A stretch of 64,000 bases of DNA from contig JBBDJV010000015.1 of assembly GCA_040879725.1 (NCBI GenBank), forward strand, positions 32,127 to 96,126, read 5' to 3'. Positions within the stretch are counted from its first letter, which is position 1. Every line of letters begins with the position of its first letter. Positions 12,601 through 25,276 of this stretch are shown here, in pieces. The notes beneath the pieces are model-generated. The model was not told the origin of the DNA. It ran no database searches and saw only the letters and a list, made by a program, of their open reading frames with translations. Source of the stretch: Minisyncoccota bacterium. Lineage in GTDB: Bacteria > Patescibacteriota > Minisyncoccia > Phycocordibacterales > GCA-2401445. Both the position numbers and the translations under genes were made by a program.

Positions 12601-15600
12601 CTACTACAGTAACCGGTGGAAGTTTGCAGATTATCGGAACATCAGATGCTACGACGACTATAGATAGGCAGAGTACGGGGAATTACGGTATTGAGATAGA
12701 AGGTGGTACGTTCACGGCTTCTTACTATAGTTTTGAAAATATGGGTTCTCGCGGACTTGGGTTTAGCGGAACACCGACAGTAACAAATATTTCAGATGGA
12801 GATTTTGAGTTGGGACTCGAAGGACAGACGCTCATAACGGTAGACGCAAGTGTTATTGATGCAAATCCAACTAAAACATTCAGTAGAAATCGTTTTGCTA
12901 CAGCAGGTTCTGTTACGAGTGGAATAAACGTTACTGTGGAGGGAACGTCCGTAAGTTCGTGGAGGTTTAGTGACCACTATGGTGATTTGGACGGTGAAGC
13001 AAATGACAGCGATCCAGGCGGTGATCCAGGATATGTTATTTGGGATGATAGCGCGGGAGATATTACTGTATCTGGTGTTGTGTATCAGAACGATAGAGTT
13101 ACTCCTGCTGGTGGAGCAGTGTGTGATGGAACAACGAATGTCGTTCGGCTTTTGGTGGAGGGAGCGGGTAGCTACTTCGTGCCGTGTGCTTCAGGAACAG
13201 GAGTATACACAATACCAAGTGTAACTTTCTTACCGAGCGATGTCTTCACGGTATTTCTTGATAATGCATCCGAAGATGCTGTAGCGGTAACGTACGGAGC
13301 ACTTACCAGTATTGCAAATATGCACCTTTATACAGATCACGTAATAGTGCGTCACGAAGGAGTAGACCCGATTACCATAAGTGAACTTGCGGTATATGAT
13401 GGAGGTGATGATGCGGATATTCCGTATACAACAACCCTAACTCCCGACACACTTTCTACTGGAGCGGGTACCGCTCTCTATGTATGGCAAGGAAAAACAT
13501 TTACTCCGGGAGGAGATGTGACGGTTACGGGAAATGGTACAACCAATGAGTATGACGGTACGCTGTATGTGTGGCAGAATGCAAATTTTGTTGCCGAAGG
13601 CAGTGAGTATTTCACTATCGGAGGAAGCTTGATTGCGAGCTCGAGCGCGGTTATTACCAGTGCTAGTTCAGATTTTGACTTTACTTCAACCGCTACCGGA
13701 AAAGTGGTACGCACAAACAGCTCGCCACTAGCTTCAGTTACATTCTCAGGTAGTGGAGGCGCGTGGTCCTTCCCCGAAACAACCGTTTCAGTGGAAGATG
13801 ATTTTACCATTACTGCTGGATCGGTAAGTCTTCCTGTGGGCACAACGACAGTTGCCGGATCATTTATAAATAATGGAGGAACCTTCACGCATAATAGTGG
13901 AACAGTGCAGTTAAATGGAACAGAAGTTGGTAATTCAATTCAAGTTGGTGGATCAGACTTCTATAACCTAACAATCGGAGGTACGGGTTCTTGGACATTC
14001 CTTGATACCAATGCAACCACAACAAATCAACTTCGCTTTGAGTATGGCTCAACAACGCTTCCGTCAGGGGTACTTACTGTGGGCGCTACACTTACTTCTG
14101 TAAATGGAACCTTTAATCACAACAACGGAGATGTGAAATTTATTTCTACCAGTTCAGGTAATGTTATTACCCAAAAAGGCTCAGGATTTGGCGGAATAAC
14201 TTTCGATGGTACTGGAGGATCTTGGTCATTTGCACAAAGTGTCGCTACTACTACCAAGGACTTCGCTATTGTAAACGGTTCGGTTGCATTACCGACAGAC
14301 ACGCTTCGGGTCGGAGGTTCGTTTATTAACGAAGGTTCATTCAGTCACAGTACCGGTACGGTGTTAATGAATTCCGCACTTACGGGAGAGGTAATAACTC
14401 CGGGAAGTGATCCATTCCATAACCTAACAATACAAAACAGCGCAGGGGGATGGACGCTTACCGGTTCAGCTACCACAACAAATAACTTTAACCTTTCTAC
14501 CAGCACAAGCTTTACTCTTGTTCCGGGTTCAACCTTGAATGTCGGGGGTTCATTTACAAATACCTCGGGCGGTGCGGGAACTTCGTGGGACGGAACGACG
14601 ATAAACCTTACTGGAGGCAATAGTTATTCAATAAATGGACGATTAAGCTCCGGAGATGAATACAATACTCTGGTAGTATCTACAACAACAAAAGCTCGCC
14701 TCTGGTCCTCATCCGCAGGAACCACCACTGTCGCAAGTACCGCATCACTCTACTCACAAGACCACGCAGGAGTAGACGGTGACCTCTACATCTGGGGAGA
14801 CTATCGCCGAACTACCGGTAATGACTACTGGAGCTATGCTACTGACTTTGACGGAACCGCACTTACCGGAGGAAGTGAACGACAAGTAAACGTACGCTTT
14901 GCTCCAAATGCTTCTACTACAGTAACCGGTGGAAGTTTGCAGATTATCGGAGCATCAGATGCTACGACGACTATAGATAGGCAGAGTACGGGCACGTATG
15001 GTCTTTCTGTGCTCGGAGGAACAGTAAATGTAGATAGATATCAGATAAGAAATATTGATGAATTGGGATTGTATATTTCTGGACAACCTACCGTTACCAG
15101 TCTTTCAAATGGAGATTATGAGCTCGATAAAGAGGGTGGTTCAATGATTACTGTTTCTTCCACAACGATTGATTTCAACCCATCGCTCTTTATTGGTGGT
15201 GCAAAATTTGCAACATCTACTGGAATAACAAGTGGATTCAACGTGACGTTGCTGGGAACACCAATAAATGCGTGGACTTTTACTGGGCATAGCGGAAATT
15301 ACGATGGAGAAGCATATGACAGTGATGGTGGAGATGCATGTGGAAAAATACGATGGAGTGACAGTGTGTGTCTCTTTGTAAGTCAAGAAAGCTATAGATT
15401 TAGAAATGATGACGGAGGGGAAGGGGTCCCTAATGACGAGTGGTACCATTCAGATTGGGATAAACGTATGAGAATTGCGATTACAAACGCTTCCACTTCA
15501 GCGCTCACAAATCAACAAGTAAAAATTGAGTTACCAAAGGCCACTGATATGCAAAGTGATTACGGAGACCTTCGGTTTACCGACAACTCAGGAACAACGA

Positions 15601-17660
15601 CAATTGATTATTGGATTGAAAGTTACACAACAGCAACTTCAACTGTGTGGGTAAAAGTTCCAAATCTCCCAGCAGAAGAAACCACTGGTATATACGTGTA
15701 CTATGACACTGTAGCAACACTCGATACTGATGGGGTAGCCACATCAACATTGATCGTATACGACGGTTTTGAGGATAACAATATAAGTGAGTATTCAGGG
15801 GACACTAGTATGTTTTCTGTATCGACAGGTTTTGATTTTGAGGGAACCTATGGACTTACATCTTCTTCAGGAAATGAAGACCAAAGAACAACAGATGGTA
15901 TTTACCGCACAGGTACAGGAAGTACCGTTTCGCAAGGAGAAACGATACATTTTGCACAATATATTGATACCTCGCTCGGTTTTCAGGATGAACCGTGTAT
16001 GGTGTTTGGTGTGCAAACACCGGGGTCAAATAATGAAAACTATGCAGTGTGTTTGGATGTATTTGGAGATTCTGTTGTTATTTCAAAAGATGTTTCTTCA
16101 AATGATGGTTCAGGAACAATACTGGCAAGCGATACTTCGGTAGGATTTTCAAGTGGGTGGTATGAAGTTGAGATTGACTGGCTCACAAGCGGAGTAATTA
16201 ATGTTGCTGTATACGATGATTCCGGTGCGCTCTTTTCTGAAGTAAGTACCACGGATTCAAGTTATAGTTCCGGAGGGTATGGATTTGGTTTTTGGATTCA
16301 GTACGGAGGATGGGATTATGTAAGTTCTTGGAAATATACTGAAGTTGTGCCGACGTATACGATTGGTATTGAACAAGTGGGTGAAGGTGCAACGTGGAGT
16401 AGTGCCGAAAACAGCCCTCTTGCGGGGCAGTCAGTAGGTGAAGATATGCGACTTCGATTCCTTGTTCAAAACTCAGGTCCGGAAATTACTGATCAAAACT
16501 TTAGATTACAAGTTGCATCAAAGGAGGGGTATGGTAGCTGTTCGTCTGTACCATACGGAAGCTTCAGTGATGTTCCTGTAAGTGGAAGTTGTGGATCCTC
16601 AGTTGCGTGTATGTCTACATCAAGTCAGGTGGTTAATAGTGCTTTAACCACACAACTGCTCTCTGTTCCTGATAGCGTGACTTTTACGCAAGGTCGTTTT
16701 GTTGAAAGTCCTTCAAACCAAACGTCAAACATTGATATCGGAACTAATCTCTATACTGAAGTTGAATATATATTTGATCTGACAAATTACGCCGTAGATT
16801 CCGCATACTGTTTGAGAACGACAGATTCTGGAACACCACTTGATAACTACGCGAATATTGCAGAGGTAAGTTTGATCCATGCCCCGACAATCACAAACTT
16901 TAACCTAAATGATAATCAGAATATTGAACTCTCAGTTGGGGCATCTACAACCATTTATGCGACAGGAACAGTAATTGACCTAAACGGATATGAAGATTTA
17001 GTGTACGCAACATCAAGTATTTATCGAACCGGTGTGGGGGCAACGTGTACTCCTGATGACAATTCATGTTATCAGGTTGCAAGTACGTCTTGTTCATTTG
17101 TAAATTGTTCTGGAAACAGCTGTGACGTGATATGTAGCGCTGACATTGCTTTCTTTGCGGATCCAACCGATGGTGGAGTGTTTGAGGCGGAAGAGTGGGA
17201 AGCTGAAATAACGGTGGTGGACCAAGGTGAGATTAGAGATACTGGTATTACCATGGGTGTTGAAATGGGAACACTTCGAGCACTTACTGTCGAAAATGAA
17301 ATTGATTACGGAACACTCGAAGTGGCAAGTAACACAGGAGATGCCAATGCAACAAGTACGGTAATTAATAAAGGAAATGACACTATTGATGTAAATCTGT
17401 ATGGTACTGACTTGGTGGGAGGTGCTAGTACGATTTCGGTAAATAATCAAAAGTTTGCAACGTCAACATTCTCATATAGTGCTTGTACTATTTGTCCATT
17501 TCTTGATAGTTCTCCTGTTCCTGCAGGTATTGATTTGAGTAAACCGACAACTACGGTGCCCGTAATGACTGAAATTTACTGGGGGTTGAATGTACCAATA
17601 GGTACCGCGGGTGTACCTCACTTTGGACAAACGACATTTGAAGCTACAGGAAGTGAGTAG
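696..17660 (+). CDS. giant (5,654 aa) multidomain secreted/surface protein, likely an adhesin
   Basis: A single uninterrupted ORF, starting at GTG 696 or ATG 711. It has an N-terminal hydrophobic anchor/signal, an acidic S/T-rich linker, an Ig-like module, three tail-collar repeats, FN3-like 'YWWRVRA' modules, a 'WNGSSWS' repeat run, very long Gly/Ser/Thr/Asn beta-helix-like repeats, DUF2341-like and LamG-like modules, and a C-terminal domain shared with the 22397..24229 protein. Confidence 0.85.
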   Translation: MDVFEMRLINLLKKDIWVVGSLLLIVLVVSGNTYLKNVYADPVIEDSVYLLPTKVESVGWNNVSTVGVQEISSDGTLGAFNKSNSAFVIFKNGEYAKEEAVIPVRETGVPKAEKIDVGETKETEGQEKLDNEESIQDFIATTTATTTTDKSVSTSTPVAESLEPENEELEGEGEEEQSTTTDSVENHNVSEEVSEEVDSEETSTSSEEVNLDTQQEINEEENNSAVEEESTDSVENENNASSSAPVTRFLNAIKRAVFSLVPSFVFADEVSTTTETSTPKVSSTTVPVEEVSSTTSVTTTPQIVTSEEEKQATEKEIEEKQVAVPSKPSEDEVIDTEAPTLTVLGNNPAVLAIGSTYNDLGVTVSDNINNNLGFKTSVDGVEVSVVSLDTKSEGVYEITYSVVDQAGNTGTAKRMVYVGIEPEEKIVSEAENETILDTFTCDNSEACTTNVLEVSGFGVGGEVFGEGLIDTAQLRISMGSNIAHSKTNELPLKLEIEYFYNESWFSAGSIVLDEEVSNAINGGYFLYALPFFESWAEFADFKVRIRYDHNKELEGGVYIDSIWIEAFSGEGINKEEFGLTKEEKKRAEIEKGMKKPKLHSVIKGKPAFEIDENPEFEFEYELQRSNISRFFRGLFKDDPDYRVSSVEIKTASGQDIDLPISLRYGGGERWGFSVEKNNESLHPGKYEVSITIHEGSKSFTDSFEFYWGVLTVNTNKSIYSPQETALFSMAALTDNGHTMCDAILRLVVVDPDQSETVVPVEKSGLCDGNNVIDVPDYFGEMQLAGVGEYQVSLERYNEEGGLVIQTNDIFEVRDYVPFDVEREGPTRIYPPAPYVMSISFRANEAFDGVITETVPKGFIIEESEGANVVVKEDVVEISWPVSVRAGERILKTYRFDAPDISPYIYETGPLVFKKEIATTSFQEMSTSSPLCSEGFCEEEITEEVVFQEIRTWKIASDAVGRMLILWDGGAAPAGWECVSCTGGDPFYQRFIRGGATYGGTGGSATHTHTASVSVGGPSATTGQTPGGSTVSGSGHTHTFTPTVSSASNLPEYRQLRVLRSTSAGTPATLPAGAIVFFTDTVPTEWTRYSAQDGRFVRGESGVGTTGGANTHSHTITGTTGAASGDTYGTQNGQTRADVAQVNHTHSVSGSTDSVSNTPPYIETILGKIDADGSLPIGMLAMWDEDVPVGWNHKSESGDPFFERFILPSATYGTIGGNITHSHANQNIVSGGPAQTTTARAGGNVSSSDHTHTISLTSYSSPSHLPPYINVVIAEFLGTDPVFTQAQFRWYTNANVETPTDAWPQGSTLNLNENEPITATSTPVSPDDVVRLRMAVGVGNATSTAGSVNFKLQYGQGSVCSAVTTWSDVGEISSSTPWIGYDNTSVLDGVELSSTTLSLSNVFGSYEEENNSTTTPNDISVGEYVEYDWVIQHNNATSGVPYCFRMVEGDGTQFFTYTSYPKLQTNSAPNTPTLDRLFDNEKIASTSPHFWFDAEDDEGDALYYQIQVDEDFAFGSVLIDNNSQSHGDQFTNLINPSQKEPYTEGNTVQFIPSSSLSNNTTYWWRVRAWDPNGSEDYGEWSEPQSFTTDSNIVESTWFQTTDEQFDTNTLNGVRTLGTDAVELNVGSSTGSMYSTFIDFSDGTYGNIWEEFSFNDAETTGSISYQVEYQTDEGAELVPDSILPGNSTGFGTSPVNLSGVDPEVYDNLRLVANFTNSGGSPQLLDWTLKWGTKIDTPTLLLPFANERFPTTTPTFTFTTTDQQSDDLQYEVSWSTVYDFTSSTTRNSSLHAGFANTEDSGDSDPFTSGDTIRFTIQPADALTASTTYWWRVRAKDPSGGNAFSDWSEPRSFTHNYLDVVSTWFQTTDEQFNTNILSGTRSTGSDSLTVATTSNEAMIVYGEGAVTTPQFRIWNGSSWSSESSALSVDSQINWVAVKEAPTREEYVLGTLGLDSDVNVQVYSEGIWDNLLEVTASISNADKRGFDITYESISGDAMVVSCDGDSNPTYYTWNGSSWSSPGTITTSTGSSCEWIRLASNPVSDEIIMVTLPGGGGQYEAQVWNGSAWGNAVVWGGMSEAHEGIGVAYQPNGALAVVTVNNDGSTPPNRMSSRTWNGSFWSGTTDTNVGYFEQGTLVADDGTNNMNLCFVNDATTVQGLPWTGTAWGTQTQLDATAHAKNDRPVDCVYETTSGRDGNVLTAYSDTTSARYSVLSGGTWSAEASISTISRSATVQLERVGDGLILGTFFDHVNERYDFSYWNGSAWSTAQTLENTPSVSSAPFKEPFMMAARGPATSGTVAVSPGIVFSDGTGPYWGELSFSNTTPGASGVLYQVQYATATTYELIPDVDLTGNSTGFTTSPVDLTGLDITTYDTIRVRATLTCDGSDCPTLDDWTVTWAEGATVSGTIAEHDETTAVTEGTVAVAVNGVLQTGKTGEIQGDGTWSITNVTAFVDDIITVFVSGATSENKAVAVTKYDGVGDITGIELHERHLTFGSDDTSPVITNSDLGLFDIAVGGSDVFFDVDASNNLVATSTGGGFDDVVVYVTSGTTYRPDSTSSGNVSTHDIAILGTIMADGNTISLSGSWRNSSTFSEGTSHVVFTALSGSESIDSTGASASNFYRVTFGQTSGTATWLLSTPLVVTNNTAVNYGTLSPGSQTLSLGGNLAIGSSGLFTKGTATTTFNGTGSSVWSDASSLKQDMGIVVIDGTSKTVTLGSNVQATDIVIGANDTFDITTGNYSIGVNGSWTNNNTFLSRQGEVNFTGSSFGVSILPGSSSFYNLSFGGSGSWTFGSTNITVVNDFSISNGFVTLPSGTTTISGSFLATASGSFAGNTGTVLFTGSSGSESISQNNSSFYNLVLNGSGSWSFSEQNATTTNNVQILSGTLTAPSGALAIGGSFTNAGTFTHNSGALRFYSSGDSKVVQPGLSSINDIIFDGSGGWVLSPSANITVSGDVSIISGTATSTAETLSVGGSWLVGPSGIFNHYDGTIAFNSSDTGETIASGNSPFGTVSFNNSNGGWAVTENATSSSGWNITDVSEFTVESGVVVAVGGDFSNDVGGAETTWTGSTLVLNSNTPFSINDKSTGSDEYASIVLNSGTKVSMWNSSATAVSANSDSYLYSQDHAGVDGNLYIWGEYVRSSGVEHWSHATDFDGTSLSGSERAVSVLFDSGASAEINNSTLSIVGGVGATTTINNQGSGAYSLSVVNSTTTAQYYAFRNLDSSGFVLTGETSVTSLSNGDFELSADGGSLVTLSAETIDENPTLQISRVRFATSTGITSGFNVTATGTPTSYWWYRNHYGNYAGEAFDNDPGDNPGNIRWDDSNLSITVSGIVYYSDRATTMGSPVCDGSTNTVRVDVQGGTGGSAPCNATTGEFSIEGVSLSGDGIVTTYLDTNGGSRAVAISKTPTADITNLGLYESWLTIRNEDVNSVSISDLVAFDSSGDSDVFFSANEGSPDTLVLEDGFGLYVEEGKSFSPNGNITLVSGSTDFVAGTFELGTSSLLTFNDGEDHAVGGSFIVGTNATATVASSSLTFTATTSGKTITPNGSSLYDVAFTGVGGEWELSTSSITGDFVVTAGTVVGTSDVLVTSGSITGNGVLAFTDGAVTLQKAGNFGGSENWTFANLVFGDGTTNATTTKIGANNILVENQLTIDTNHVLLAGDDEWELGGSGTPFVISGDFDAETSTVTYSGTSATTVTAEEYNALTLAPSGAGSPNYTLASGSFILNTLVVGDGVNTVSVNANTTDPLVNVNGDVTINSNATYVSSNSSLLSVGGSWTNNGAFTHSNGTVLFNSSDTGEIVSSGNSAFGNLLFSNVSGGWAISGNATTSGNLILASSTSFTLSPGSTLSVGGMFENQLDGGVTTWDGTTLVLEGAVGYSVNSATSTGDTYNTLVIDENTDVRLWSSSAGTTTVASTASLYSQDHAGVDGDLYIWGDYRRTTGNDYWSYATDFDGTALTGGSERQVNVRFAPNASTTVTGGSLQIIGTSDATTTIDRQSTGNYGIEIEGGTFTASYYSFENMGSRGLGFSGTPTVTNISDGDFELGLEGQTLITVDASVIDANPTKTFSRNRFATAGSVTSGINVTVEGTSVSSWRFSDHYGDLDGEANDSDPGGDPGYVIWDDSAGDITVSGVVYQNDRVTPAGGAVCDGTTNVVRLLVEGAGSYFVPCASGTGVYTIPSVTFLPSDVFTVFLDNASEDAVAVTYGALTSIANMHLYTDHVIVRHEGVDPITISELAVYDGGDDADIPYTTTLTPDTLSTGAGTALYVWQGKTFTPGGDVTVTGNGTTNEYDGTLYVWQNANFVAEGSEYFTIGGSLIASSSAVITSASSDFDFTSTATGKVVRTNSSPLASVTFSGSGGAWSFPETTVSVEDDFTITAGSVSLPVGTTTVAGSFINNGGTFTHNSGTVQLNGTEVGNSIQVGGSDFYNLTIGGTGSWTFLDTNATTTNQLRFEYGSTTLPSGVLTVGATLTSVNGTFNHNNGDVKFISTSSGNVITQKGSGFGGITFDGTGGSWSFAQSVATTTKDFAIVNGSVALPTDTLRVGGSFINEGSFSHSTGTVLMNSALTGEVITPGSDPFHNLTIQNSAGGWTLTGSATTTNNFNLSTSTSFTLVPGSTLNVGGSFTNTSGGAGTSWDGTTINLTGGNSYSINGRLSSGDEYNTLVVSTTTKARLWSSSAGTTTVASTASLYSQDHAGVDGDLYIWGDYRRTTGNDYWSYATDFDGTALTGGSERQVNVRFAPNASTTVTGGSLQIIGASDATTTIDRQSTGTYGLSVLGGTVNVDRYQIRNIDELGLYISGQPTVTSLSNGDYELDKEGGSMITVSSTTIDFNPSLFIGGAKFATSTGITSGFNVTLLGTPINAWTFTGHSGNYDGEAYDSDGGDACGKIRWSDSVCLFVSQESYRFRNDDGGEGVPNDEWYHSDWDKRMRIAITNASTSALTNQQVKIELPKATDMQSDYGDLRFTDNSGTTTIDYWIESYTTATSTVWVKVPNLPAEETTGIYVYYDTVATLDTDGVATSTLIVYDGFEDNNISEYSGDTSMFSVSTGFDFEGTYGLTSSSGNEDQRTTDGIYRTGTGSTVSQGETIHFAQYIDTSLGFQDEPCMVFGVQTPGSNNENYAVCLDVFGDSVVISKDVSSNDGSGTILASDTSVGFSSGWYEVEIDWLTSGVINVAVYDDSGALFSEVSTTDSSYSSGGYGFGFWIQYGGWDYVSSWKYTEVVPTYTIGIEQVGEGATWSSAENSPLAGQSVGEDMRLRFLVQNSGPEITDQNFRLQVASKEGYGSCSSVPYGSFSDVPVSGSCGSSVACMSTSSQVVNSALTTQLLSVPDSVTFTQGRFVESPSNQTSNIDIGTNLYTEVEYIFDLTNYAVDSAYCLRTTDSGTPLDNYANIAEVSLIHAPTITNFNLNDNQNIELSVGASTTIYATGTVIDLNGYEDLVYATSSIYRTGVGATCTPDDNSCYQVASTSCSFVNCSGNSCDVICSADIAFFADPTDGGVFEAEEWEAEITVVDQGEIRDTGITMGVEMGTLRALTVENEIDYGTLEVASNTGDANATSTVINKGNDTIDVNLYGTDLVGGASTISVNNQKFATSTFSYSACTICPFLDSSPVPAGIDLSKPTTTVPVMTEIYWGLNVPIGTAGVPHFGQTTFEATGSE
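3574..4520 (+). other. three tandem phage tail-collar (MdpB-like, Pfam Collar-type) repeats inside the giant protein
   Basis: The recurring motif chain is 'G.L..W.G..P.GW..C.G' ... 'RF.RG...G..GG...HTH(T)' ... 'LPPY/TPPYI..I'. The three instances end NLPEYRQLRVL, TPPYIETILGKI and HLPPYINVVIAEF. Confidence 0.6.
12384..12680. repeat. intragenic near-identical direct repeat, copy 1 (about 297 bp)
   Basis: The nucleotide string 'cgcctctggtcctcatccgcaggaacc...gcagattatcgga' is identical to 14697..14993 except for one mismatch. Confidence 0.9.
14697..14993. repeat. intragenic near-identical direct repeat, copy 2
   Basis: This copy lies 2,313 bp downstream of copy 1 and encodes the same ~99-aa block (RLWSSSAGTTTVASTASLYSQDHAGVDGDLYIWGDYRRTTGNDYWSYATDFDGTALTGGSERQVNVRF...). 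A diverged third copy is at ~9981..10280. Confidence 0.9.
15440..15710 (+). other. DUF2341-like module in the giant protein
   Basis: 'DWDKRMRIAITNAS...QQVKIELPKA...DYGDLRFTDNSGTTTIDYWIESY...TVWVKVPNL...GIYVYYDT' follows the DUF2341 pattern W..R..I.I......L..FP.L...F.D..G..L..E.E...........WVK.P.L....I.MYYGN. A LamG/ConA-like region follows. Confidence 0.45.
16870..17657 (+). other. C-terminal ~260-aa domain of the giant protein, homologous to the C-terminal half of the 22397..24229 protein
   Basis: Aligned blocks: YRTGVGATCTPDDNSCY ~ YRSGVTAASC..DPNNCY; FFADPTDGGVFEAEEWEAEITVVDQ ~ FLADATDAGSFYAAEDWRATVTATDD; NQKFATSTFSY ~ NQKFGTTTTGY; EIYWGLNVPIGTAG ~ DIYWGIGIPGTITFAG. Confidence 0.7.
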
Positions 17661-17803
17661 CTATAGTAGAGGAGGTATTGACGATTACAGTCAGTGGTAT
17701 ACACTAGATATATTATGAATAGAGTAGGAAACATATTCTTTTTCTTTGCCTTTAGCCAGCACTCTGGTTGAGGTTTTGCTTGTTTCTGGAAATATTCTTG
17801 AAA

Positions 17804-17836
17804 AAAGCCAGCTCTCAACCAGAGCTGGCTTTTTAG
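17804..17836 (+). terminator. rho-independent terminator after the giant gene
   Basis: A perfect 9-bp stem 'gccagctct'/'agagctggc' with loop 'caacc', followed by TTTTT. Confidence 0.7.
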
Positions 17837-18096
17837 TTCTTTACAACAAAATACAAATTATGCACGCTATGACTACGCAAAGAAAACACAAACGAACACC
17901 GGGTGCTACATTCACGCTCAAAACTGATTTTGTTATTTCCTTCCACGAAGGTCGGAAAAAAATCACACGCACGTATTCCACCGGAACAAAAGGGAAGTTG
18001 GTAGCAACATCTTTTTCCCAAGGGTCTTGGTTCTTTGTTCTCATGATGCCCGACTGAAACGTCATTAACGTCAATGAGTGTAAGCTCATATAAACC

Positions 18097-18131
18097 ACAC
18101 CCCACTTAGACACGTTCAAGTGGGGTTTTTA
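18097..18131 (+). terminator. second rho-independent terminator
   Basis: Stem 'ccccactt'/'aagtgggg' with loop 'agacacgttc', followed by TTTTT. Confidence 0.65.
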
Positions 18132-18249
18132 ATTAATGGCAAACAATACGTGGTTTTAAAATTTTCTTTATTCCTATAGAAATTTTTATCTACAACAGAG
18201 ACACAACTCTCACTACTCGCATGATATACTTTTAACGAGACTTGCCTCT

Positions 18250-19755
18250 ATGCATTTTTTACGTACCAACATTTTAGTTAAAATAACACTCTATACCTTT
18301 TTGATTGTGGGAGTAGGTGTATTTTCTTTCCATAAAGGAAGTTTGGCGCAGGTAAATAATCGTACTGCGCCTGTCATAACTGACATTTCTATCGCTGAAG
18401 TAAAAGAATCAGAGGTCCGTATTTTATGGGAAACCGATAAAGAGTCTGACTCAATGGTAAACTTCGGACTCGATAAGCGATATGGAATTATTCGTCTTCC
18501 TGGAACAAGTCGAACCGACCATGAGTTAACTATTGGAGAGTTGAAACCTTCAACCACATACCATTTTCGAGTTGTTTCTTCTGATGCATCCGGAAACCAA
18601 AGCATTTCTGGTGACTTTCAGTTTACTACGAAGGGAATAGTAGAAGTAGAAGATATTGAGCGGGTTGAATCTCGCGAACAGCGCGCGGTTGTTGAACAAG
18701 CGGTAGCGCAAATTGATGAAATTACCGATGTTGAAGCTCTTGATATTGTCATTCAAAAAATACAACAAGTTGCGTCAGGTATTACCGATGATTTAACTAT
18801 TATCGGAACACCAGATGTTGAACCTCGTACAACAACAGCAGTTGTGCGATGGGTAACAAACAGACCCTCTGATTCCACTGCATCATTTGTTTCCGAAGAT
18901 GACTACAATCCACAAAGTAGCAATCCATACACCTCTTCTCAGAGTAGCAATGATGAAAATGTTACGGACCACCAAGTTACTATTATTGGTCTTGAACCAT
19001 TTACTGTTTATCGTTTGCAAGTGTCATCACGTGATCAGTTTGGTATCGTGGGAAAAAGTAAGGAGATAACCTTTACTACAAAATCAGTATTGCCGAATAT
19101 TACCAATATTGATTTAGAGAAAATAGAAGAAACCTCAGCTACTATTGTGTGGAATACAACTGTCCCTGCTAAATCTCTTATTGATTATGAAAACTTAGAT
19201 ACTGGTGAAATTAAGTCACTCGGTAGTCCAAGTTTGGCGACAAGTCACTCGCTCCGTCTTTCAGACCTTACGCTTGGAACACAGTACCGCGCGATAATTA
19301 CCGCAGAAAATGCGGGAGGAGAAAGAGTAAGTAGTGATCCTATTACCTTCGTTACTATTATAGATGAAGAACCTCCAGTGATTTCAAAAGTAACAAACGA
19401 ATCAACGCTTTTCCCCGGTTCGGAGGCTAGAATTCAGACCATTATTAGCTGGGAAACCGATGAGCCTTCACTGTGTAATTTCTTCTATCACCAAGGGTTG
19501 GTTCCGGGAGTAGTTCCTGAACAAACATTGCCAAGAAAGGACGATAACTATAAACAGGAACATGTACAGGTTGTTGTAGACTTCGCCCCTTCAACCGTAT
19601 ACAAGTTTTGGGTAATGTGTGAGGATGCATCCGAAAATGAATCTCGTTCGGAAGACTTTGTATTGTTTACTCCCGAGAAGGAAAAAAATATTATTGATAT
19701 AATTCTTGAGAACTTCGAAGGAACGTTCGGTTGGGTTCAGGATATCGGAGCTTAA
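18250..19755 (+). CDS. membrane-anchored protein with four FN3-like repeats (likely extracytoplasmic partner of the downstream ABC transporter)
   Basis: An N-terminal TM (ITLYTFLIVGVGVFSF) is followed by four ~95-aa repeats, each ending in '...Y.FRV.S.D..GN.S.S..F.FTT'-like strands. The stop TAA overlaps the next gene's start in TAATATG. Confidence 0.7.
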   Translation: MHFLRTNILVKITLYTFLIVGVGVFSFHKGSLAQVNNRTAPVITDISIAEVKESEVRILWETDKESDSMVNFGLDKRYGIIRLPGTSRTDHELTIGELKPSTTYHFRVVSSDASGNQSISGDFQFTTKGIVEVEDIERVESREQRAVVEQAVAQIDEITDVEALDIVIQKIQQVASGITDDLTIIGTPDVEPRTTTAVVRWVTNRPSDSTASFVSEDDYNPQSSNPYTSSQSSNDENVTDHQVTIIGLEPFTVYRLQVSSRDQFGIVGKSKEITFTTKSVLPNITNIDLEKIEETSATIVWNTTVPAKSLIDYENLDTGEIKSLGSPSLATSHSLRLSDLTLGTQYRAIITAENAGGERVSSDPITFVTIIDEEPPVISKVTNESTLFPGSEARIQTIISWETDEPSLCNFFYHQGLVPGVVPEQTLPRKDDNYKQEHVQVVVDFAPSTVYKFWVMCEDASENESRSEDFVLFTPEKEKNIIDIILENFEGTFGWVQDIGA

Positions 19756-19756
19756 T

Positions 19757-21082
19757 ATGGCAAAAGCACAAATTTTCGCAAAAAACCTGGAGGTTACATA
19801 TAACGAAGGAAAGTCCAATGAATTCAAAGCATCTCGTGATTTGAACGTGGAAATTTTTGCTGGAGAATACATTATTCTTTTCGGTCCGTCTGGATGCGGA
19901 AAGTCAACACTACTCTACTCAATCCTTGGAGCACTTCCACCTTCTCGGGGCCAAATGCTCGTAAAGGGAGACGATATATATAAGTATGAACAGGATCAGT
20001 TGGTTAATTTCCAAAGAAATGTTATCGGGATTATGTATCAGGCTTTTAACCTTATTCCGTCTATCAGCGTGCTCGATAATGTAGTACTTCCGCAAATATT
20101 TGCATCAGTAGATAAAGCACGGAGAGATAACCGGGGGAGAGATTTGCTTAGGCGCTTTGGTGTGGATCATATTGCAAACAAACTTCCAACAAACCTATCA
20201 GGAGGACAGATGCAACGTGTGGCTGTAGCTCGTTCACTGGTAAATGACCCAGAGATTCTCTTAGCTGATGAGCCGGTAGGTAACTTGGACAGTATTTCCG
20301 CGGAGCAGGTTATGAACACTCTTGAGCAGATTAATTTGAATGATAAAAAAACTGTTATTTTGGTTACTCACGATGCGAAATATTTACCCTATGCGCACCG
20401 CGTGTACTATTTGCGTGATGGTAAAAATGAACGAGAGGTGCCAAATCCAGAAAAAAAGCAAATTAAAAAAGTAGAGGCTGGTAAAACTATAACCACTGAA
20501 ATTGAAAAGCTGGCTCGTATGTATCCGTATTCTTCTATTGAAGAACTTCGAGTAAAAAGCCTGGTTAATTATCTTATCGAAGATATTGACTTTGATCAGC
20601 TTGTTATTCTTGAAAAAGCGGTAGAAGATGTGATCAAGGGGAGAATGGGTGATAATCGATTTCTCGATATTTTAAATAAGCGCATAGGAGAGGGTGGGGT
20701 TGGTTTTAGTAAAGCTCGTTCAGAGATGATAACAAAAAAGATTTTCACTATAATGGAAGAGTCTCGAGATATAACCCGCTTTAGGTCAACTATTGATATG
20801 GATTTAGGTTATTACTACCAGTCAAGATTTGTTGAACGACTCAAAAAGTATACCCTCAGTGAAGTTAAAATAAAGTTAAGCAAAGAACAACATGAGCGAT
20901 TAGATGACTTTATCTCAGATAGACTTACAGGACTAACTCGTCGGCATGAATTTCTACTTGCGCTTGATAAGCCTGTGAAAGAGGGTGGTTTAGGTCTGAA
21001 CAAAAAGGCTTCTGCTCTTATTTCACGACATATTGAAAAACTACTTGCACAGGGAGTAAGCTATATAATCGCAAAACACTAA
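19757..21082 (+). CDS. ABC transporter ATP-binding protein (MacB/LolD/FtsE class) with an atypical ~200-aa C-terminal extension
   Basis: Walker A GPSGCGKST, the signature LSGGQMQRVAVAR, Walker B ILLADEP and H-loop VTHD are all present. The extension is two tandem ~90-aa repeats, each containing an 'EGG(V/L)G(F/L).K' core. I moved the start from the ORF-track ATG at 19706 to the ATG at 19757, which sits in TAATATG overlapping the upstream stop. Confidence 0.85.
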   Translation: MAKAQIFAKNLEVTYNEGKSNEFKASRDLNVEIFAGEYIILFGPSGCGKSTLLYSILGALPPSRGQMLVKGDDIYKYEQDQLVNFQRNVIGIMYQAFNLIPSISVLDNVVLPQIFASVDKARRDNRGRDLLRRFGVDHIANKLPTNLSGGQMQRVAVARSLVNDPEILLADEPVGNLDSISAEQVMNTLEQINLNDKKTVILVTHDAKYLPYAHRVYYLRDGKNEREVPNPEKKQIKKVEAGKTITTEIEKLARMYPYSSIEELRVKSLVNYLIEDIDFDQLVILEKAVEDVIKGRMGDNRFLDILNKRIGEGGVGFSKARSEMITKKIFTIMEESRDITRFRSTIDMDLGYYYQSRFVERLKKYTLSEVKIKLSKEQHERLDDFISDRLTGLTRRHEFLLALDKPVKEGGLGLNKKASALISRHIEKLLAQGVSYIIAKH

Positions 21083-21083
21083 T

Positions 21084-22292
21084 ATGCAACTCATTGACCT
21101 CGCAAAACTTTCAACTCGTATGTTTAAAACCAACCCGGCTCGTACATGGCTGACTATTTTAGGTATGGGTGTGGGTACTGGAGCGGTGGTGGTGCTGGTG
21201 GGATTGGGTTTTGGTTTGCAGGGAGTATTGCTCGAGCAGATTGTGTTCGGAGAAACACTGCTTTCGCTTAACGTTTCAAGCCCTACCTCTGATACGGTTA
21301 AGTTAAACGATGAAGCGATTGAAGAATTTTTTGCAATAGAAAATGTTCTCGATGTTTCTCCGAGAGCGAGTTTTCCCGCGTCGGTTACGTACGGTGATCT
21401 AACGGGGAATATTTTCTTAGAGGGGTTAAACCCCGCGTATGTTCGGTATACTGGTACACAAGCAGAAGCAGGAGAAGTGTTTACGGAAGAAACAAGAGCA
21501 GAAGATCAGAAAAGTGTTCTTCTCACACAGTCAGTACTAAAGCTTTTTGGTGTCGAAACACCAGAGGAAATTATCGGAGAGTCCGTAACGTTTAGAATTT
21601 TTCTTGAAACTGGCGTGGGTGAGGTTGCCAGAGAGGTTATACTTCGCGATAAATATATTGTAAAAGGAGTAACTAACGATGCAACGTCGCTTTCGGCGCA
21701 AATGCTTATGGAAGAGCTCGAACAGCATGTTGGAATTGAGCTTTATGATCGTGCCCAAGTGCGCGTTTCAAAAACTGACTTTCTCACCCCTACTACGGAC
21801 GCACTTATTGAAATGGGTTTTAATGTAACTGCGCTATCCAAGACAGTGGAACAGGCAACAAAGATTTTCCAAGGAGTGCAAGCCGTTCTCGCATCATTTG
21901 GCGGTATAGCGCTCATTGTGTCTGCAATCGGAATGTTTAACACCATGACCGTTACGCTCCTTGAGAGAACGGGAGAAATTGGAATTATGCGTACCATCGG
22001 TGCGTCGTCTCTTGATATTAAGATTTTATTCGTTTCGGAAGCGGTTATTGTAGGTTTTTTGGGAGGGCTTATGGGTATAGCCATAGGTATGGGTATTGGG
22101 ATTACGTTAAATACAGGTATAAATATTCTAGCAAGCCAGTTCGGTGGTGTTGCAGTGAAGCTTTTTCGGTTTCCGTTTTGGTTCCTCGCATTTATTTCTA
22201 CATTCTCAGGAATTGTTGGTTTTATGACGGGTATTTTCCCAGCACGGCGGGCGGCAGGACTTAATCCACTCGATGCTATTCGTTACAAGTAA
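21084..22292 (+). CDS. ABC transporter permease, FtsX/MacB type (4 TM, large extracytoplasmic domain between TM1 and TM2)
   Basis: TM1 ARTWLTILGMGVGTGAVVVLVGLGFG is followed by a ~220-aa loop and a C-terminal FtsX core 'IALIVSAIGMFNTMTVTLLERTGEIGIMRTIGAS'. It starts 1 nt after the ATPase stop. Confidence 0.85.
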   Translation: MQLIDLAKLSTRMFKTNPARTWLTILGMGVGTGAVVVLVGLGFGLQGVLLEQIVFGETLLSLNVSSPTSDTVKLNDEAIEEFFAIENVLDVSPRASFPASVTYGDLTGNIFLEGLNPAYVRYTGTQAEAGEVFTEETRAEDQKSVLLTQSVLKLFGVETPEEIIGESVTFRIFLETGVGEVAREVILRDKYIVKGVTNDATSLSAQMLMEELEQHVGIELYDRAQVRVSKTDFLTPTTDALIEMGFNVTALSKTVEQATKIFQGVQAVLASFGGIALIVSAIGMFNTMTVTLLERTGEIGIMRTIGASSLDIKILFVSEAVIVGFLGGLMGIAIGMGIGITLNTGINILASQFGGVAVKLFRFPFWFLAFISTFSGIVGFMTGIFPARRAAGLNPLDAIRYK

Positions 22293-22396
22293 ACGTTGTA
22301 CACAGGTTGTTTGCTTTTAAGAGACAAAAGTTATGTATAATAAGAGCAAGACGCATTTAGTGTCATTTTCTTTACAATAAACATCGTGCGATATAT

Positions 22397-24229
22397 ATGC
22401 ATATAATTAAAAGATTTAACAAAGCACAAGCTACTGCAGGAAAGGTAACTATCGTTACTGTTCTCGCGGGGATAATGGTTTTTGCCGCCTTTTATGTGCT
22501 TAACCTCGACGAACACACCGTTCCCAAGGTTGAAGCTCAAAGTAATGCAACTACTTCCGTGGAAGTCCTTAACACTCCACCTGATTGGACTGTTGATGCG
22601 GAAGAAGGTGCGGAATCATCTATCACAAATCCTACTAACTCAGGGGATGCTGTTTCGTGGGTAGCAACAGGAACCGACGCTAACGGAGAAGATTATTACC
22701 TTCTTATCTGTAATGCGTCTTCTACACCGATTGCTAATTCAAACGCTGCTCCAGAATGTACTGGTGGAACTCAGTGGGCAGTTTCAACCTCTACCGCAAG
22801 TGGTCAGCCGGCAAGTGTCTCAACTACCACAGCAGAAGCATGGGATGAGAGCAATGACTGGTATGCGTATATTTGTGATGATAATACAAGTACACCACGG
22901 TGTAATGCTGCACATCGACAAGGAAGTGGCTCGACAGCATCTCCGTTTTTAGTAAACCACAGACCAACTTTTTCACTGTTTAGCGATAGTTCACCAACTC
23001 TTCCTGGTGCTGTAATTACATGGCACTCAACATCAACTGACTCTGACATCGAGGGTGGAGCTGACACTCTTATACTTCATGTATGTAAAGAAGCAGACTT
23101 TACCGGCACAGAATGTGGTGCGGGAGGTTTCTGGGCTTCAACAACACTTACCTATACAGCAGACACTGCCGCAAGTACAACGCTTCCAGTTCCATTGCAA
23201 GACGATGATTATGAAGCATACGGGTATGTTGTTGACAACCACGGTCACGCAGCAACAGGTGGGCAGCAAGGAGCCGACTCTGTTCTAACTGTCGCAAATG
23301 CTACCCCTACGGTTAGCTCGGGTACTATCAATATTAACGGATTAGCTGACCTTGAGCTTGCGATTGCGGGAGGAGAAACTGAAAACTTCACACTTTCATT
23401 TGCTGTAAGTGATGGAAATAGCTGTGTTGCGAATGCATCTACTACGTATGAAGTGGCAACTGTTTCTGCAGACTTCTATCGCTCAGGAGTTACAGCTGCG
23501 AGCTGTAATTCTGCAGGCGATTATGATCCGAATAACTGCTATACTGGAACAGTAGCTACAACAACATGGAATTTGGTTTGTACACAAGATAATACATCAT
23601 GTGGAGGTCCTGATGACTCAACAGTTACGTGGAGCTGTACGTTCCCTCTATGGTTCCTCGCTGATGCAACTGATGCAGGAAGTTTCTATGCGGCGGAAGA
23701 TTGGAGAGCTACAGTAACTGCTACAGATGATAATTCTTCCGCAAGTACTCCAACAGAAAGTGCTGGTGGACAAGATGTCCTCCAACTTATGTCTTTCGTT
23801 CTTAATACTTCTGATATTCCATACGGAGCCCTAGAGCCAGGTCAGACAACAGAGGATTTGATCGCAACAACAACGATTGCTGCAAATGGTAATGTTGGCC
23901 TTGACCAAAACCTCTATGGAGAACATATGTGTCCAGGGTATAGTGGTCAAGGAACATGTCCATTCCAAAGTCCAGCTACCTCTTCAATCCATGCTGATAA
24001 CCAAAAATTCGGAACAACAACCACTGGATATGTAGATAATGATGCGTATGCTCTGGCTACAACAACTCAAGAGCTTGAGCTAAACCTTGCTAAAACAATA
24101 AGTACATCAACACTCTCTGAGGCAGATATTTACTGGGGTATTGGTATCCCTGGTACTATTACTTTCGCTGGTGAATATTTCGGAGAAAATACATTCCAAA
24201 TGGTTACTTCGGAATCTGCTGAGTGGTAA
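22397..24229 (+). CDS. secreted/N-terminally anchored protein whose C-terminal half is homologous to the giant protein's C-terminal domain
   Basis: N-terminal hydrophobic segment VTIVTVLAGIMVFAAFYVL. The N-terminal half contains two internal Cys-containing repeats. The C-terminal half aligns to 16870..17657. Confidence 0.75.
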   Translation: MHIIKRFNKAQATAGKVTIVTVLAGIMVFAAFYVLNLDEHTVPKVEAQSNATTSVEVLNTPPDWTVDAEEGAESSITNPTNSGDAVSWVATGTDANGEDYYLLICNASSTPIANSNAAPECTGGTQWAVSTSTASGQPASVSTTTAEAWDESNDWYAYICDDNTSTPRCNAAHRQGSGSTASPFLVNHRPTFSLFSDSSPTLPGAVITWHSTSTDSDIEGGADTLILHVCKEADFTGTECGAGGFWASTTLTYTADTAASTTLPVPLQDDDYEAYGYVVDNHGHAATGGQQGADSVLTVANATPTVSSGTININGLADLELAIAGGETENFTLSFAVSDGNSCVANASTTYEVATVSADFYRSGVTAASCNSAGDYDPNNCYTGTVATTTWNLVCTQDNTSCGGPDDSTVTWSCTFPLWFLADATDAGSFYAAEDWRATVTATDDNSSASTPTESAGGQDVLQLMSFVLNTSDIPYGALEPGQTTEDLIATTTIAANGNVGLDQNLYGEHMCPGYSGQGTCPFQSPATSSIHADNQKFGTTTTGYVDNDAYALATTTQELELNLAKTISTSTLSEADIYWGIGIPGTITFAGEYFGENTFQMVTSESAEW

Positions 24230-24340: not shown

Positions 24341-25276
24341 ATGAAAATTTCTAAAAAACTGGCATATACTCTTGTTCTTGTAATTTTTCTGTGTGCACCG
24401 TTTTTCCTGCATGCGAGTTTTGGTATTACGCCACCATACGTAAAGAATACAAGCTTAACTCGTAACTCTGAGTTTACACAGAAAATTACGTTAGTGCGCG
24501 GTGATCCAGTTTCTGACCTGAAGGCGGAGCTCACTATGGATGTTCCTGGAGCAAATGACTGGATCACCATAGATAAAGGTATGACCTTTTTGTTACCTAA
24601 AGGGGAGCAGAAGGTACCTATGTATGTTACTGTAAAAATTCCCGATGGAGCTCGTTTTCAAAAATATAAAGGTAACATCCGTATACGAACATCTCCGGCA
24701 GACGGGGAGAGAAGTGGTGGTGGAGCCGTGTCCATTGCTCTCGGTGCACAAATCGATGTTGACTTTGATGTTATAGATAGAAAAATTTTTGACTTTAGAG
24801 TAAGAAAGATAGCAATTGAAGATGTTGCTGAGGGGCACTCACTCGCATGGTTATATTTTCCCGGGAAAATTAATTTCAAAATCTCACTTGAAAATACCGG
24901 TAACATAGATGTCGCACCTTCGAAAGTAGTCTTTGATATTTTTGATTTTAACGGGGAGACATTACTCGAAACTACAGAAAGTAAAAATAAAATAGAAAAG
25001 GTTAAGCCGTTTGAAACCAAAGAGGTTGTAGCAGAACTTCCTACTTCACTTCCAGCAGGAAGCTATTTGGTACGGTATGTAATTTATAACAATGATGAAG
25101 TGAAGCAAGAAGGGGAGCTCAATCTCTCAATAGTACCTTACGGCACACTCGCGCAAGCTGGATATGGTTTCAGTGGTCTGTCTATCCCGCATAAACTTAC
25201 GATTATTGTCCCTATAGCTGTTCTTCTTTTGTTTGTATTTTTGGTATTTAAAAAGTCTAGGAAAAGAAAAAGATAA
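24341..25276 (+). CDS. surface protein with a signal peptide, two beta-sandwich-like domains, and a C-terminal TM plus polybasic tail
   Basis: N-terminal signal-like LAYTLVLVIFLCAPFFLHA. The C-terminal anchor reads LTIIVPIAVLLLFVFLVF followed by KKSRKRKR. Confidence 0.6.
   Translation: MKISKKLAYTLVLVIFLCAPFFLHASFGITPPYVKNTSLTRNSEFTQKITLVRGDPVSDLKAELTMDVPGANDWITIDKGMTFLLPKGEQKVPMYVTVKIPDGARFQKYKGNIRIRTSPADGERSGGGAVSIALGAQIDVDFDVIDRKIFDFRVRKIAIEDVAEGHSLAWLYFPGKINFKISLENTGNIDVAPSKVVFDIFDFNGETLLETTESKNKIEKVKPFETKEVVAELPTSLPAGSYLVRYVIYNNDEVKQEGELNLSIVPYGTLAQAGYGFSGLSIPHKLTIIVPIAVLLLFVFLVFKKSRKRKR

Follow-up and report, generated by a model that had tools for sequence, protein, structure and literature searches.

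A C-terminal domain shared by a giant surface protein and its small neighbor is encoded on both sides of an FN3-ABC-FtsX module in Patescibacteria

All of the genes discussed here lie on the forward strand of the window (the whole 64-kb stretch of DNA that was analyzed) and run from a giant surface protein to p577, the final gene of the cluster (Table 1). The mechanically called ORF of the giant begins at GTG 696 and would encode 5654 aa; a start at ATG 711 is implied by a database protein (P0175) of 5649 aa, whose C-terminal ~750 aa, the part compared, match at 100% identity. The giant consists of an N-terminal hydrophobic segment, Ig-like domains, internal repeats (three, of ~2.3–2.4 kb each), a DUF2341, and the C-terminal domain that is the subject of this study (CTD), with Pfam matches to Bact_surface_Ig-like, Ig_Rha78A_N and DUF2341. 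From aa ~1250 onward, giants of 5.3–7.7k aa align collinearly as far as their C-termini, at ~46% identity, and their N-termini are variable. The 590-nt gap 3′ of the giant gene holds a terminator-like hairpin, whose 14-bp stem precedes a T run, suggesting that the giant is transcribed separately from the FN3-ABC-FtsX genes. An Rfam search of the window gave no match.

The ABC ATPase that follows the FN3-repeat protein was listed as an ORF from TTG 19706, but ATG 19757 is the likelier start, and orthologs begin with MAK. Its best NCBIfam matches were the DarD, MacB, LolD and FtsE ATPases, all under the equivalog cut-offs, and the permease matched MacB, LolCE and FtsX in part. Systems of the MacB/Lol/FtsEX type act on extracytoplasmic partners. 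Downstream, p610 begins with a helix (aa 7–34), continues as a disordered linker and ends in four beta-sandwich domains (AF2 model, mean pLDDT 81.6), the last two of which form its CTD. Scoring of 8,000 candidates gave at least 826 homologs at E ≤ 0.001, of which the 120 best are 596–626 aa long, mostly 47–53% identical, and without Pfam annotation. The adjoining p311 combines a signal-like N-terminus and beta-rich ectodomain with a C-terminal TM helix and KKSRKRKR tail, and a Pfam search across 40 of its orthologs gave weak E-set/Ig-like matches (Wzt_C, CopC, GH123_N_2, DUF7490). The dockerin protein p377 is syntenic in nearly all loci, and p354 resembles the cohesin-bearing N-terminus of p577 homologs, as seen in cross-matches between the two. 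Read by eye, the charged tail of p577 resembles a cytoplasmic coiled coil.

Table 1. Features of the giant/p610 gene cluster, in window coordinates.
Feature	Position	Strand	Evidence
Giant surface protein gene	711..17660	+	ORF list, translation, Pfam, repeats
Cargo-type CTD copy, giant aa ~5392–5654	16869..17657	+	BLASTP, hhalign, HMM
Terminator-like hairpin	17802..17834	+	Consensus pattern scan only
FN3-repeat protein, 501 aa, N-terminal hydrophobic segment	18250..19755	+	Pfam fn3 and Pur_ac_phosph_N above threshold
ABC ATPase, MacB/LolD/FtsE type, ~200-aa C-terminal extension	19757..21082	+	Pfam ABC_tran 1.4e-30
MacB-type permease, 402 aa (MacB_PCD extracytoplasmic + FtsX transmembrane)	21084..22292	+	Pfam MacB_PCD 7e-15, FtsX 5e-15
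p610, 610 aa	22397..24229	+	Translation, homologs, AF2 model
p610-type CTD copy, aa ~298–606	23288..24214	+	BLASTP, hhalign, HMM, AF2
p311	24341..25276	+	Sequence, synteny, weak Pfam matches
p377: Cys-rich repeat DUF4215, Gly-rich linker, Big_6, C-terminal dockerin	25283..26416	+	Pfam Dockerin_1, Big_6 and DUF4215 above threshold
p354: N-terminal signal-like segment, C-terminal TM helix	26472..27536	+	Sequence, synteny
p577: cohesin, Big_13, C-terminal TM helix, charged tail	27539..29272	+	Pfam Cohesin 1.9e-9 and Big_13 8e-12, above threshold; synteny

The original prediction that the giant and p610 end in a common domain, and that they are its only carriers in the window, was borne out by both pairwise and profile comparison. 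BLASTP aligned p610 aa 352–606 with giant aa 5434–5654 (30% identity, 73.6 bits, E 1e-16 with composition-based statistics), and hhalign of 48 p610 homologs against 45 giant C-terminal homologs (probability 100%, E 9.3e-44, 287 columns) widened the common region to p610 aa ~300–606 and giant aa ~5396–5654. Blocks kept in both copies include YR(S/T)GV..C, N(N/S)CY, FxADxTD, (E/D)W.A.(V/I)T, I.YG.LE, GN..(L/I)D.NLYG, NQKF(G/A)T(T/S)T and IYWG(I/L)..P, with Cys, Trp and GN at invariant positions; the Cys and Trp positions predicted earlier are thus real, being present in the conserved BLASTP blocks. The limits first proposed, 16870–17657 and ~23290–24229, agree with the HMM envelopes at 16869–17654 (E 4e-100) and 23288–24211 (E 1e-93). 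No third CTD was found in the 64 kb by tblastn or by an unfiltered HMM scan of six-frame ORFs, in which all other hits had E-values of 0.1 or worse.

Modeled alone with AF2, the CTD is predicted to form two Ig-like beta-sandwiches over ~260–310 aa (pLDDT 81.3, pTM 0.75); in p610 these correspond to a Cys-rich subdomain 1 (aa ~298–455) and a subdomain 2 (aa ~456–606). No family matching the CTD was found in Pfam, NCBIfam, PHROGs or the PDB. The domain is widespread, with matches to 2,548 50%-identity clusters at E ≤ 1e-3. Among the 150 best matches of the library search it lies nearly always at the extreme C-terminus, and its carriers, which differ greatly in their N-terminal architecture, include giants (5–7.7k aa), ~610-aa proteins and other architectures, such as proteins of 400–3700 aa with Gly_rich_2, DUF7483 or Ig_Rha78A_N. 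The few interior positions in this set look like fused or miscalled genes. The CTD is best explained as an unannotated extracellular C-terminal domain existing in two old paralogous versions, one on the conserved small p610 and one on a variable “cargo” protein, which in this lineage is a giant of 5–7.7k aa. The CTD of our giant is ~50% identical to the C-termini of other giants. Loci carry at most two copies; in 53 of them the number is exactly two, with each type present once.

Gene order in Paceibacteria is strongly kept: giant, FN3, ABC, FtsX/MacB, p610, p311, the dockerin protein, and then the cohesin proteins. Of 74 evaluable genome loci, 67 have FtsX as the immediate upstream neighbor of p610; in 63 of 66 metagenome loci the giant is followed at once by the FN3 gene; and in 37 of 43 metagenome loci, a set begun from giant-type CTDs with at least 7 kb downstream, FN3-ABC-FtsX-p610 lies downstream of the giant-type CTD. 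The flanking of the module by the two carriers is shared by most related genomes. In six divergent clusters (L084, L085, L075, L079, L080, L083) ABC/FtsX genes were not found within the DNA covered, which reached no more than 10 kb to either side and, in L079, L080 and L085, much less upstream, and yet two adjoining CTD genes, p311 and cohesin/dockerin genes are retained. The cargo of L084 has 726 aa, and its p610 homolog (310 aa), the shortest, consists of a signal-like segment and CTD only; the CTD proteins of L085 have 897 and 368 aa, and the other four clusters are similar. L012 keeps only an FtsX remnant between intact giant and p610 genes. Since the divergent clusters retain the CTD pair and p311 with no ABC genes found, the transporter link is not obligatory. 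Elsewhere, p610 and its downstream genes occur without any of the genes that precede p610 in this order (L015, L037, L057, L062).

These arrangements bear on the original proposal of a link to the transporter, in which the CTD would be a handle: the MacB/FtsX-type ABC system and FN3 protein would use it to grip Sec-exported proteins at the external face of the membrane and push, release or thread them through the wall, much as MacB takes substrates from the periplasm or LolCDE extracts lipoproteins. The flanking arrangement, the type of the ATPase and permease, and the presence of the module beside short cargo of ~850 aa as well (L028, L042, L049, L067, L081) would fit such a handle. The very strong linkage in Paceibacteria makes a direct functional tie possible, and the CTD may be a sorting signal for the transporter. 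We nevertheless consider the handle unlikely: the six divergent clusters keep both CTD genes with no module found in the DNA covered, L012 has lost the module but has both CTD genes intact, three loci (L045, L052, L055) carry FN3-ABC-FtsX-p610 with no CTD cargo upstream, and the invariant neighbor of p610 is not FtsX but p311, which lies directly downstream in 75 of 75 loci and is also present in the ABC-less clusters. The original interpretation thus stands in that a genuine shared module flanks the transporter, but the transporter is not what characterizes the system.

Both CTD proteins carry N-terminal hydrophobic segments of Sec type. Should both segments be retained as anchors, the CTDs would lie farthest from the membrane, where they might bind an external ligand common to both, for instance a glycan or protein on the host-cell surface, with p610 as a short and the giant as a long adhesin. 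We regard this as rather improbable. The same N-terminal segments make it unlikely that the ABC system exports the CTD proteins across the membrane. Giant adhesins with a C-terminal signal adjoining ABC genes are a known pattern (LapA, SiiE and RTX adhesins are ABC-exported), and the extreme C-terminal position of the CTD matches it, but a type-1-secretion-like export signal is highly improbable here, being contradicted by the N-terminal segments and by a permease of MacB_PCD+FtsX (type VII) rather than ABC_membrane type; moreover, such signals are short and unstructured, whereas the CTD is predicted to be folded and Cys-rich, and the pair also occurs with no ABC genes found in the flanking DNA covered.

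An anchoring or common binding role of the CTD is plausible, and we tentatively favor a reading, by analogy with the WxL clusters of Firmicutes, in which the CTD pair is an assembly or anchoring module for the giant and ABC/FtsX is accessory. The giant and p610 would leave the cytoplasm via Sec through their N-terminal segments, and outside the cell the two CTDs would build a common platform, by contacting one another, by binding to membrane-anchored p311 (a candidate partner of the CTD), or both. This would attach the giant fiber to the envelope by its conserved C-terminal end, beside the cohesin/dockerin proteins encoded downstream, and the variable ~1250 N-terminal residues would face outward. 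The conserved C-terminal part and variable N-terminus of the giants are the pattern to be expected if it is the C-terminal end that meets self components; the cohesin and dockerin proteins of the cluster, with their TM anchors, fit an assembled surface complex. FN3-ABC-MacB/FtsX may then be a lineage-specific mechanotransducer that acts on the complex during or after its assembly, and not an exporter that recognizes the CTD. The layout of p311 is that of WxLIP proteins (PMC10599100), but because the Pfam WxL and WxLIP models gave no match, the parallel is architectural only. A mirror-tree analysis revealed no CTD-specific co-evolution, the partial r between the giant and p610 C-termini (0.42) equaling that between the giant C-terminus and its own mid-region.

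A giant protein and a small neighbor of an ultrasmall Patescibacteria bacterium thus end in the same unnamed domain, a predicted double beta-sandwich. Across this group of bacteria the pair is retained within a cluster of surface genes, in most but not all cases with an ABC/FtsX motor between its members, and, judging from sequence, it probably assembles or anchors the giant on the cell.

The giant surface protein of the window (5.6k aa) and the 610-aa protein encoded downstream of it (p610) end in homologous copies of a single domain, hereafter the C-terminal domain (CTD). BLASTP with compositional adjustment aligned p610 residues 352–606 with residues 5434–5654 of the giant (30% identity, 73.6 bits, E = 1e-16), and a comparison of profiles from 48 p610 and 45 giant C-terminal homologues returned a probability of 100% (E = 9.3e-44, 287 columns). 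Invariant or near-invariant positions in a joint alignment of the two families include the initial Pro, D.N, YRSG, several Cys (including NNCY), ADPTD, two Trp, GN, QK(Y/F)ATS, and (Y/F)WG(I/L)..P close to the end. Chance or low-complexity similarity was ruled out by the composition-corrected BLAST, the profile–profile comparison, and HMM statistics, and the shared domain of the original prediction was borne out in both its location and its conserved Cys and Trp blocks. Neither tblastn nor an unfiltered HMM scan of the 64 kb found a third copy, confirming that the giant and p610 are the only two carriers in the window.

An AlphaFold2 model of p610 based on family alignments (mean pLDDT 81.6) contains an N-terminal helix (aa 7–34), a disordered linker, and four beta-sandwich domains; the Cys-rich CTD modeled alone forms two beta-sandwiches (pLDDT 81.3, pTM 0.75). 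The CTD could not be placed in a known family, with no match in Pfam (E up to 10), NCBIfam, PHROGs, or a PDB sequence profile search, and neither p610 nor the giant C-terminus matched any NCBIfam family at E ≤ 0.01, the curated sorting and anchor models of NCBIfam and Pfam included. A profile search run exhaustively over 1.84 billion representatives recovered CTD matches in 2,548 clusters (50% identity) at E ≤ 1e-3, 2,005 of them at E ≤ 1e-10. Among the best 150 of these matches, the domain lies nearly always at the extreme C-terminus. Carriers comprise giants of 5.3–7.7k aa, p610-like proteins of 550–640 aa, and many others of 400–3700 aa that differ N-terminally, carrying Gly_rich_2, DUF7483, Ig_Rha78A_N, or nothing recognizable; many short matches are C-terminal fragments of giant genes truncated at contig ends. 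No published description of the domain or its cluster was found in the literature searched on Paceibacteria giant proteins, giant genes, DUF2341, Minisyncoccus, and cohesin/dockerin in Patescibacteria. The CTD represents an unannotated domain family, putatively a C-terminal module by which proteins of a surface cluster are assembled or anchored.

In the window, the two CTD genes belong to a cluster of nine genes, whose remaining downstream members are named here by protein length (p311, p377, p354, and p577). The window belongs to a metagenome-assembled genome of Candidatus Paceibacterota (Patescibacteria/CPR), and the p610 sequence is 100% identical to NCBI entry WDZ88_02955, a "hypothetical protein" of a MAG of that group. 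Pfam scores for the cohesin domain of p577 (38.3 bits, cut-off 24.1) and the dockerin domain of p377 (36.1 bits, cut-off 22.9) identify a cohesin–dockerin pair within one Patescibacterium cluster, outside any cellulosome context. The giant gene is followed by a 590-nt gap (17661–18249) with no convincing ORF, unusual for a compact CPR genome, in which positions 17802–17834 hold a strong hairpin resembling a terminator, with a 14-bp stem and a T run; no Rfam family matched anywhere in the window. Directly downstream of the cluster (29359–31148) are ORFs of 189 and 407 aa, which by eye we take to resemble a LexA/S24-type repressor and a Y-family (DinB/ImpB-like) DNA polymerase, respectively.

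Genes of the surface-protein cluster and extents of the two CTD copies
Feature	Position (nt)	Strand	Remarks
Giant ORF	696..17660	+	5654 aa; likely start 711
CTD of giant	16869-17657	+	aa ~5392-5654
FN3-repeat protein	18250..19755	+	
ABC ATPase, MacB/LolD type	19757-21082	+	ATG 19757 likelier start than listed TTG 19706, which overlaps FN3 gene
MacB_PCD+FtsX permease	21084..22292	+	
p610	22397..24229	+	
CTD of p610	23288-24214	+	aa ~298-606
p311, surface-protein gene		+	Directly 3' of p610; signal-like N-terminus, beta-rich ectodomain, C-terminal TM helix, basic tail
p377	25283-26416	+	DUF4215 Cys-rich repeat, Big_6, Dockerin_1
p354, surface-protein gene		+	Between p377 and p577
p577	27539-29272	+	Cohesin, Big_13, C-terminal TM, coiled-coil-like tail; membrane-anchored

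The same gene order (giant, FN3, ABC, FtsX, p610, p311, p377, sometimes extra genes, p354, p577) recurs in Kaiser-, Nomura-, Lloyd-, Sung-, and Azambacteria and in other Paceibacteria. Loci were collected from the p610 side (80 GTDB species genomes found via p610, plus three loci from direct look-ups) and from the giant side (metagenome contigs found via the giant-type CTD). FtsX directly precedes p610 in 67 of 74 evaluable p610-side loci and p311 directly follows it in all 75 (75/75), and no locus holds more than two CTD copies. On the giant side, FN3 is the next gene in 63/66 loci, followed by ABC in 50/53, and of the 43 loci with at least 7 kb of downstream sequence, 37 carry FN3-ABC-FtsX-p610 in full. 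The linkage first noticed in the window, of two CTD genes flanking an FN3-ABC-FtsX module, is thus real and strong from either side. Two typical Paceibacteria clusters occur in MAGs labeled Acidimicrobiales (JBLIMJ010000001.1, locus L073) and Gammaproteobacteria (CAYTBZ010000001.1, locus L077), probably through binning or labeling errors, and many of the "uncultured Candidatus Saccharibacteria" labels of this locus set look generic.

A homology search aimed at other architectures gave 21 matches, three of them CTD proteins, two of which lead to loci that depart from this order (L084 and L085). At L084, a 726-aa CTD protein directly precedes a 310-aa p610 homologue (11284–12216) that consists of an N-terminal signal-like segment and the CTD only. 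Further downstream lie genes for a homologue of p311, for a dockerin protein, and for proteins resembling p354 and p577; no ABC or FtsX gene was found within 10 kb. L085 encodes CTD proteins of 897 and 368 aa ~670 nt apart, then the same downstream genes, and no ABC/FtsX gene was found on its 11-kb contig. Four more clusters (L075, L079, L080, and L083) place a cargo-type CTD protein of 618–1272 aa, or one truncated by the contig end, immediately before a p610-like gene, likewise with no ABC genes in the available flanks, which extend <1 kb upstream of p610 in L079 and L080. At L012, ~390 nt separate giant and p610 (~9619–10006) and retain only a short FtsX-like fragment; the ABC module appears to have been lost there. 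Other variants have p610 and the downstream genes without the upstream ones (L015, L037, L057, and L062), FN3-ABC-FtsX-p610 with no CTD cargo encoded in the preceding 5 kb (L045, L052, and L055), or a short cargo of ~850 aa alongside the ABC unit (L028, L042, L049, L067, and L081). Because of these departing loci, we take the recurring core to be the p610-type CTD, p311, and the cohesin/dockerin set, with a cargo-type CTD gene usually nearby. The two CTD genes very commonly have FN3-ABC-FtsX inserted between them, but this linkage appears non-obligatory; the expectation that the domain always sits beside an FtsX/MacB-type transporter, which arose from the original prediction, holds for the bulk of the loci but not for L012 or, in the available flanks, for the six ABC-less clusters.

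Compared with 23 other giants, the giant is collinear at ~46% identity from aa ~1250 to its end (~4400 aa), while the first ~1250 aa (711–4450) are poorly conserved or absent; within these variable residues lie an acidic stretch rich in Thr, Ser, and Glu and an "HTHT" region rich in Gly, His, and Thr (aa ~1000–1250). Three tandem units of ~2.3–2.4 kb (~770–800 aa) occupy 10038–14944, with copies at 10038, 12438, and 14751, and a 300-nt stretch is 92% identical between the last two (12332–12631 vs. 14645–14944), suggesting that the gene underwent a recent internal duplication or gene conversion. Both the giant and p610 carry N-terminal hydrophobic segments. Across 48 homologues, p610 residues G15, K16, and T18, which directly precede the N-terminal helix or stand at its beginning (22397–22510), are invariant, as is the final Trp (24224–24226). 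The G-(K/R) motif was considered as a special signal, either prepilin-like or ABC-linked, and varies among orthologues; we take it not to fit the prepilin consensus. It is absent from the p610-like proteins of ABC-less clusters, whose N-termini look like ordinary signal peptides.

Type VII ABC mechanotransducers, such as FtsEX-PcsB/EnvC/CwlO, MacAB, and LolCDE, work with extracytoplasmic partners. The window's transporter resembles them in its MacB/LolD/FtsE-type ATPase and MacB_PCD + FtsX permease (Pfam ABC_tran, MacB_PCD, and FtsX all above threshold; best NCBIfam matches to the DarD, MacB, LolD, and FtsE families) and in the tight linkage of its genes to those of extracytoplasmic proteins. 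The neighbors, however, are FN3-repeat and Ig-like surface proteins, whose partnership with the transporter is suggested solely by synteny, and not the coiled-coil hydrolase activator, membrane-fusion protein, or lipoprotein carrier found beside such systems elsewhere. It also differs in a C-terminal extension of the ATPase (~200 aa, ~20490–21082), which follows the nucleotide-binding domain and matches no family (orthologues total 440–487 aa), and in the module being missing from the available DNA of some related clusters.

The closest known logic is that of the WxL clusters of Lactobacillales and Bacillales, which encode a small WxL protein (CscB) consisting of the WxL domain only, a large protein (CscC) with variable N-terminal domains and a C-terminal WxL domain of distinguishable subtype, and WxLIP/CscA (DUF916-DUF3324 + TM), whose two Ig-like domains are followed by a C-terminal TM helix and which binds WxL by strand insertion; in the proposed model, WxL proteins and WxLIP together build a platform with two WxL domains on the wall (PMC1534035, PMC10599100). 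The Patescibacteria clusters parallel this arrangement in a small member that can be signal segment plus CTD alone (the 310-aa protein of L084), in large heterogeneous multidomain cargo ending in a paralogous CTD (the giant; the 726-aa protein of L084), in a ConA-like DUF2341 region that precedes the giant's CTD by some 700 aa, and perhaps in p311, a protein of ~300 aa whose signal peptide-like N-terminus, beta-rich ectodomain, and C-terminal TM helix with basic tail may correspond to WxLIP. All are Sec-type surface proteins, and the two CTD versions are distinguishable, cf. WxL1/WxL2. Unlike the WxL domain, the CTD is twice as long (260–310 aa), has two sandwiches, is rich in Cys, and carries a single W-G-(I/L) motif near its C-terminus in place of the dual Trp-x-Leu signature. 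The clusters further differ in phylum, in cargo of up to 7.7k aa, in their cohesin/dockerin proteins, in the usual presence of an FN3-ABC-MacB/FtsX unit, and in having no LPXTG CscD. Pfam WxL matched 0 of 23 CTD sequences at E ≤ 1 and neither window copy at E ≤ 10. Among 40 p311 orthologues, DUF916 matched none and WxLIP_HBD one, weakly (E = 0.081), alongside weak E-set matches; remote homology of p311 to WxLIP is thus unsupported. With the Pfam WxL and WxLIP models unmatched, we claim an architectural likeness and not membership of the WxL family.

Other surface proteins carry modular C-terminal domains for targeting or assembly, among them the T9SS CTD, dockerin, and SLH. Like these, the Patescibacteria CTD is a conserved module that sits at the very C-terminal end, or close to it, of proteins with many unrelated N-terminal cargo architectures, and it shares with the T9SS CTD a beta-sandwich fold, here predicted. 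It differs in length (~260–310 vs. ~60–90 aa), in matching no NCBIfam or Pfam sorting domain, in its host, a monoderm Patescibacterium without T9SS, and, as far as the loci show, in having only two copies per locus vs. dozens per genome. Patescibacteria proteins of >4000 aa with FhaB or DUF2341 domains have been noted, for which no full-length homologues were found (PMC11809585); the window giant resembles them in size (>5000 aa), DUF2341 content, and phylum, and neither a C-terminal domain in common, nor a partner like p610, nor the cluster is mentioned in the portion of that paper considered here.

Because the cluster reproduces the WxL architecture (minimal p610, cargo with CTD, and p311), we favor, tentatively, a model in which a CTD platform with p311 would fix the base of the giant fiber to the envelope, the FN3-ABC/FtsX unit acting as an accessory mechanotransducer. 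The C-terminal end of the giant behaves like the part contacting conserved self components, since the giants are collinear there and variable N-terminally. The original prediction that the CTD could be a recognition handle of the MacB-type system fits the strong linkage to FN3-ABC-FtsX, sits poorly with the clusters that pair CTD proteins with no such module in the available flanks, and now seems unlikely. A distal ligand-binding tip, recalling the common binding domain also raised at the outset, we judge about as unlikely. In a mirror-tree analysis of 31 loci, all cluster proteins correlate (r = 0.41–0.95), and after control for FtsX + ABC the value for giant vs. p610 C-termini (0.42) is no higher than in controls, leaving these readings unseparated. 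The most far-reaching version of the anchoring model, which we hold as a long shot, is that paired CTD proteins, p311, the cohesin/dockerin proteins, and FN3-ABC-MacB/FtsX make up an undescribed envelope machine widespread in Patescibacteria, in which the type VII motor would mechanically deploy, tension, or release a giant host-contact fiber whose base rests on a CTD–CTD–p311 platform. Type 1 secretion is excluded, as its substrates (RTX/LapA-like) lack an N-terminal signal peptide, end in a short C-terminal signal without structure, and leave through an exporter of the ABC_membrane type, whereas both CTD proteins carry N-terminal hydrophobic segments, the CTD is predicted to be a folded Cys-rich double sandwich, and the permease is of the MacB/FtsX type.

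The domain family defined here comprises about 2,500 clusters and is found in neither Pfam nor NCBIfam. It marks a conserved cluster of surface genes with a giant protein at its center and offers an annotation handle by which many fragmentary "hypothetical proteins" at contig ends become recognizable as giant-gene C-termini. The assembly model on WxL logic is concrete and testable and defines a question, the role of a MacB/FtsX-type motor in such a cluster. L084 (minimal p610) and L012 (ABC module apparently lost) are natural variants useful for experiments. Very abundant and for the most part uncultured, Paceibacteria and their Patescibacteria relatives are thought to be host-attached, and to our knowledge almost nothing is known of their surface machinery beyond type IV pili. 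The family is large, its synteny is unusually clean, and it may bear on the host-contact apparatus of a major uncultured lineage. The envelope machine, if that reading is true, would be a main attachment organelle of Paceibacteria.
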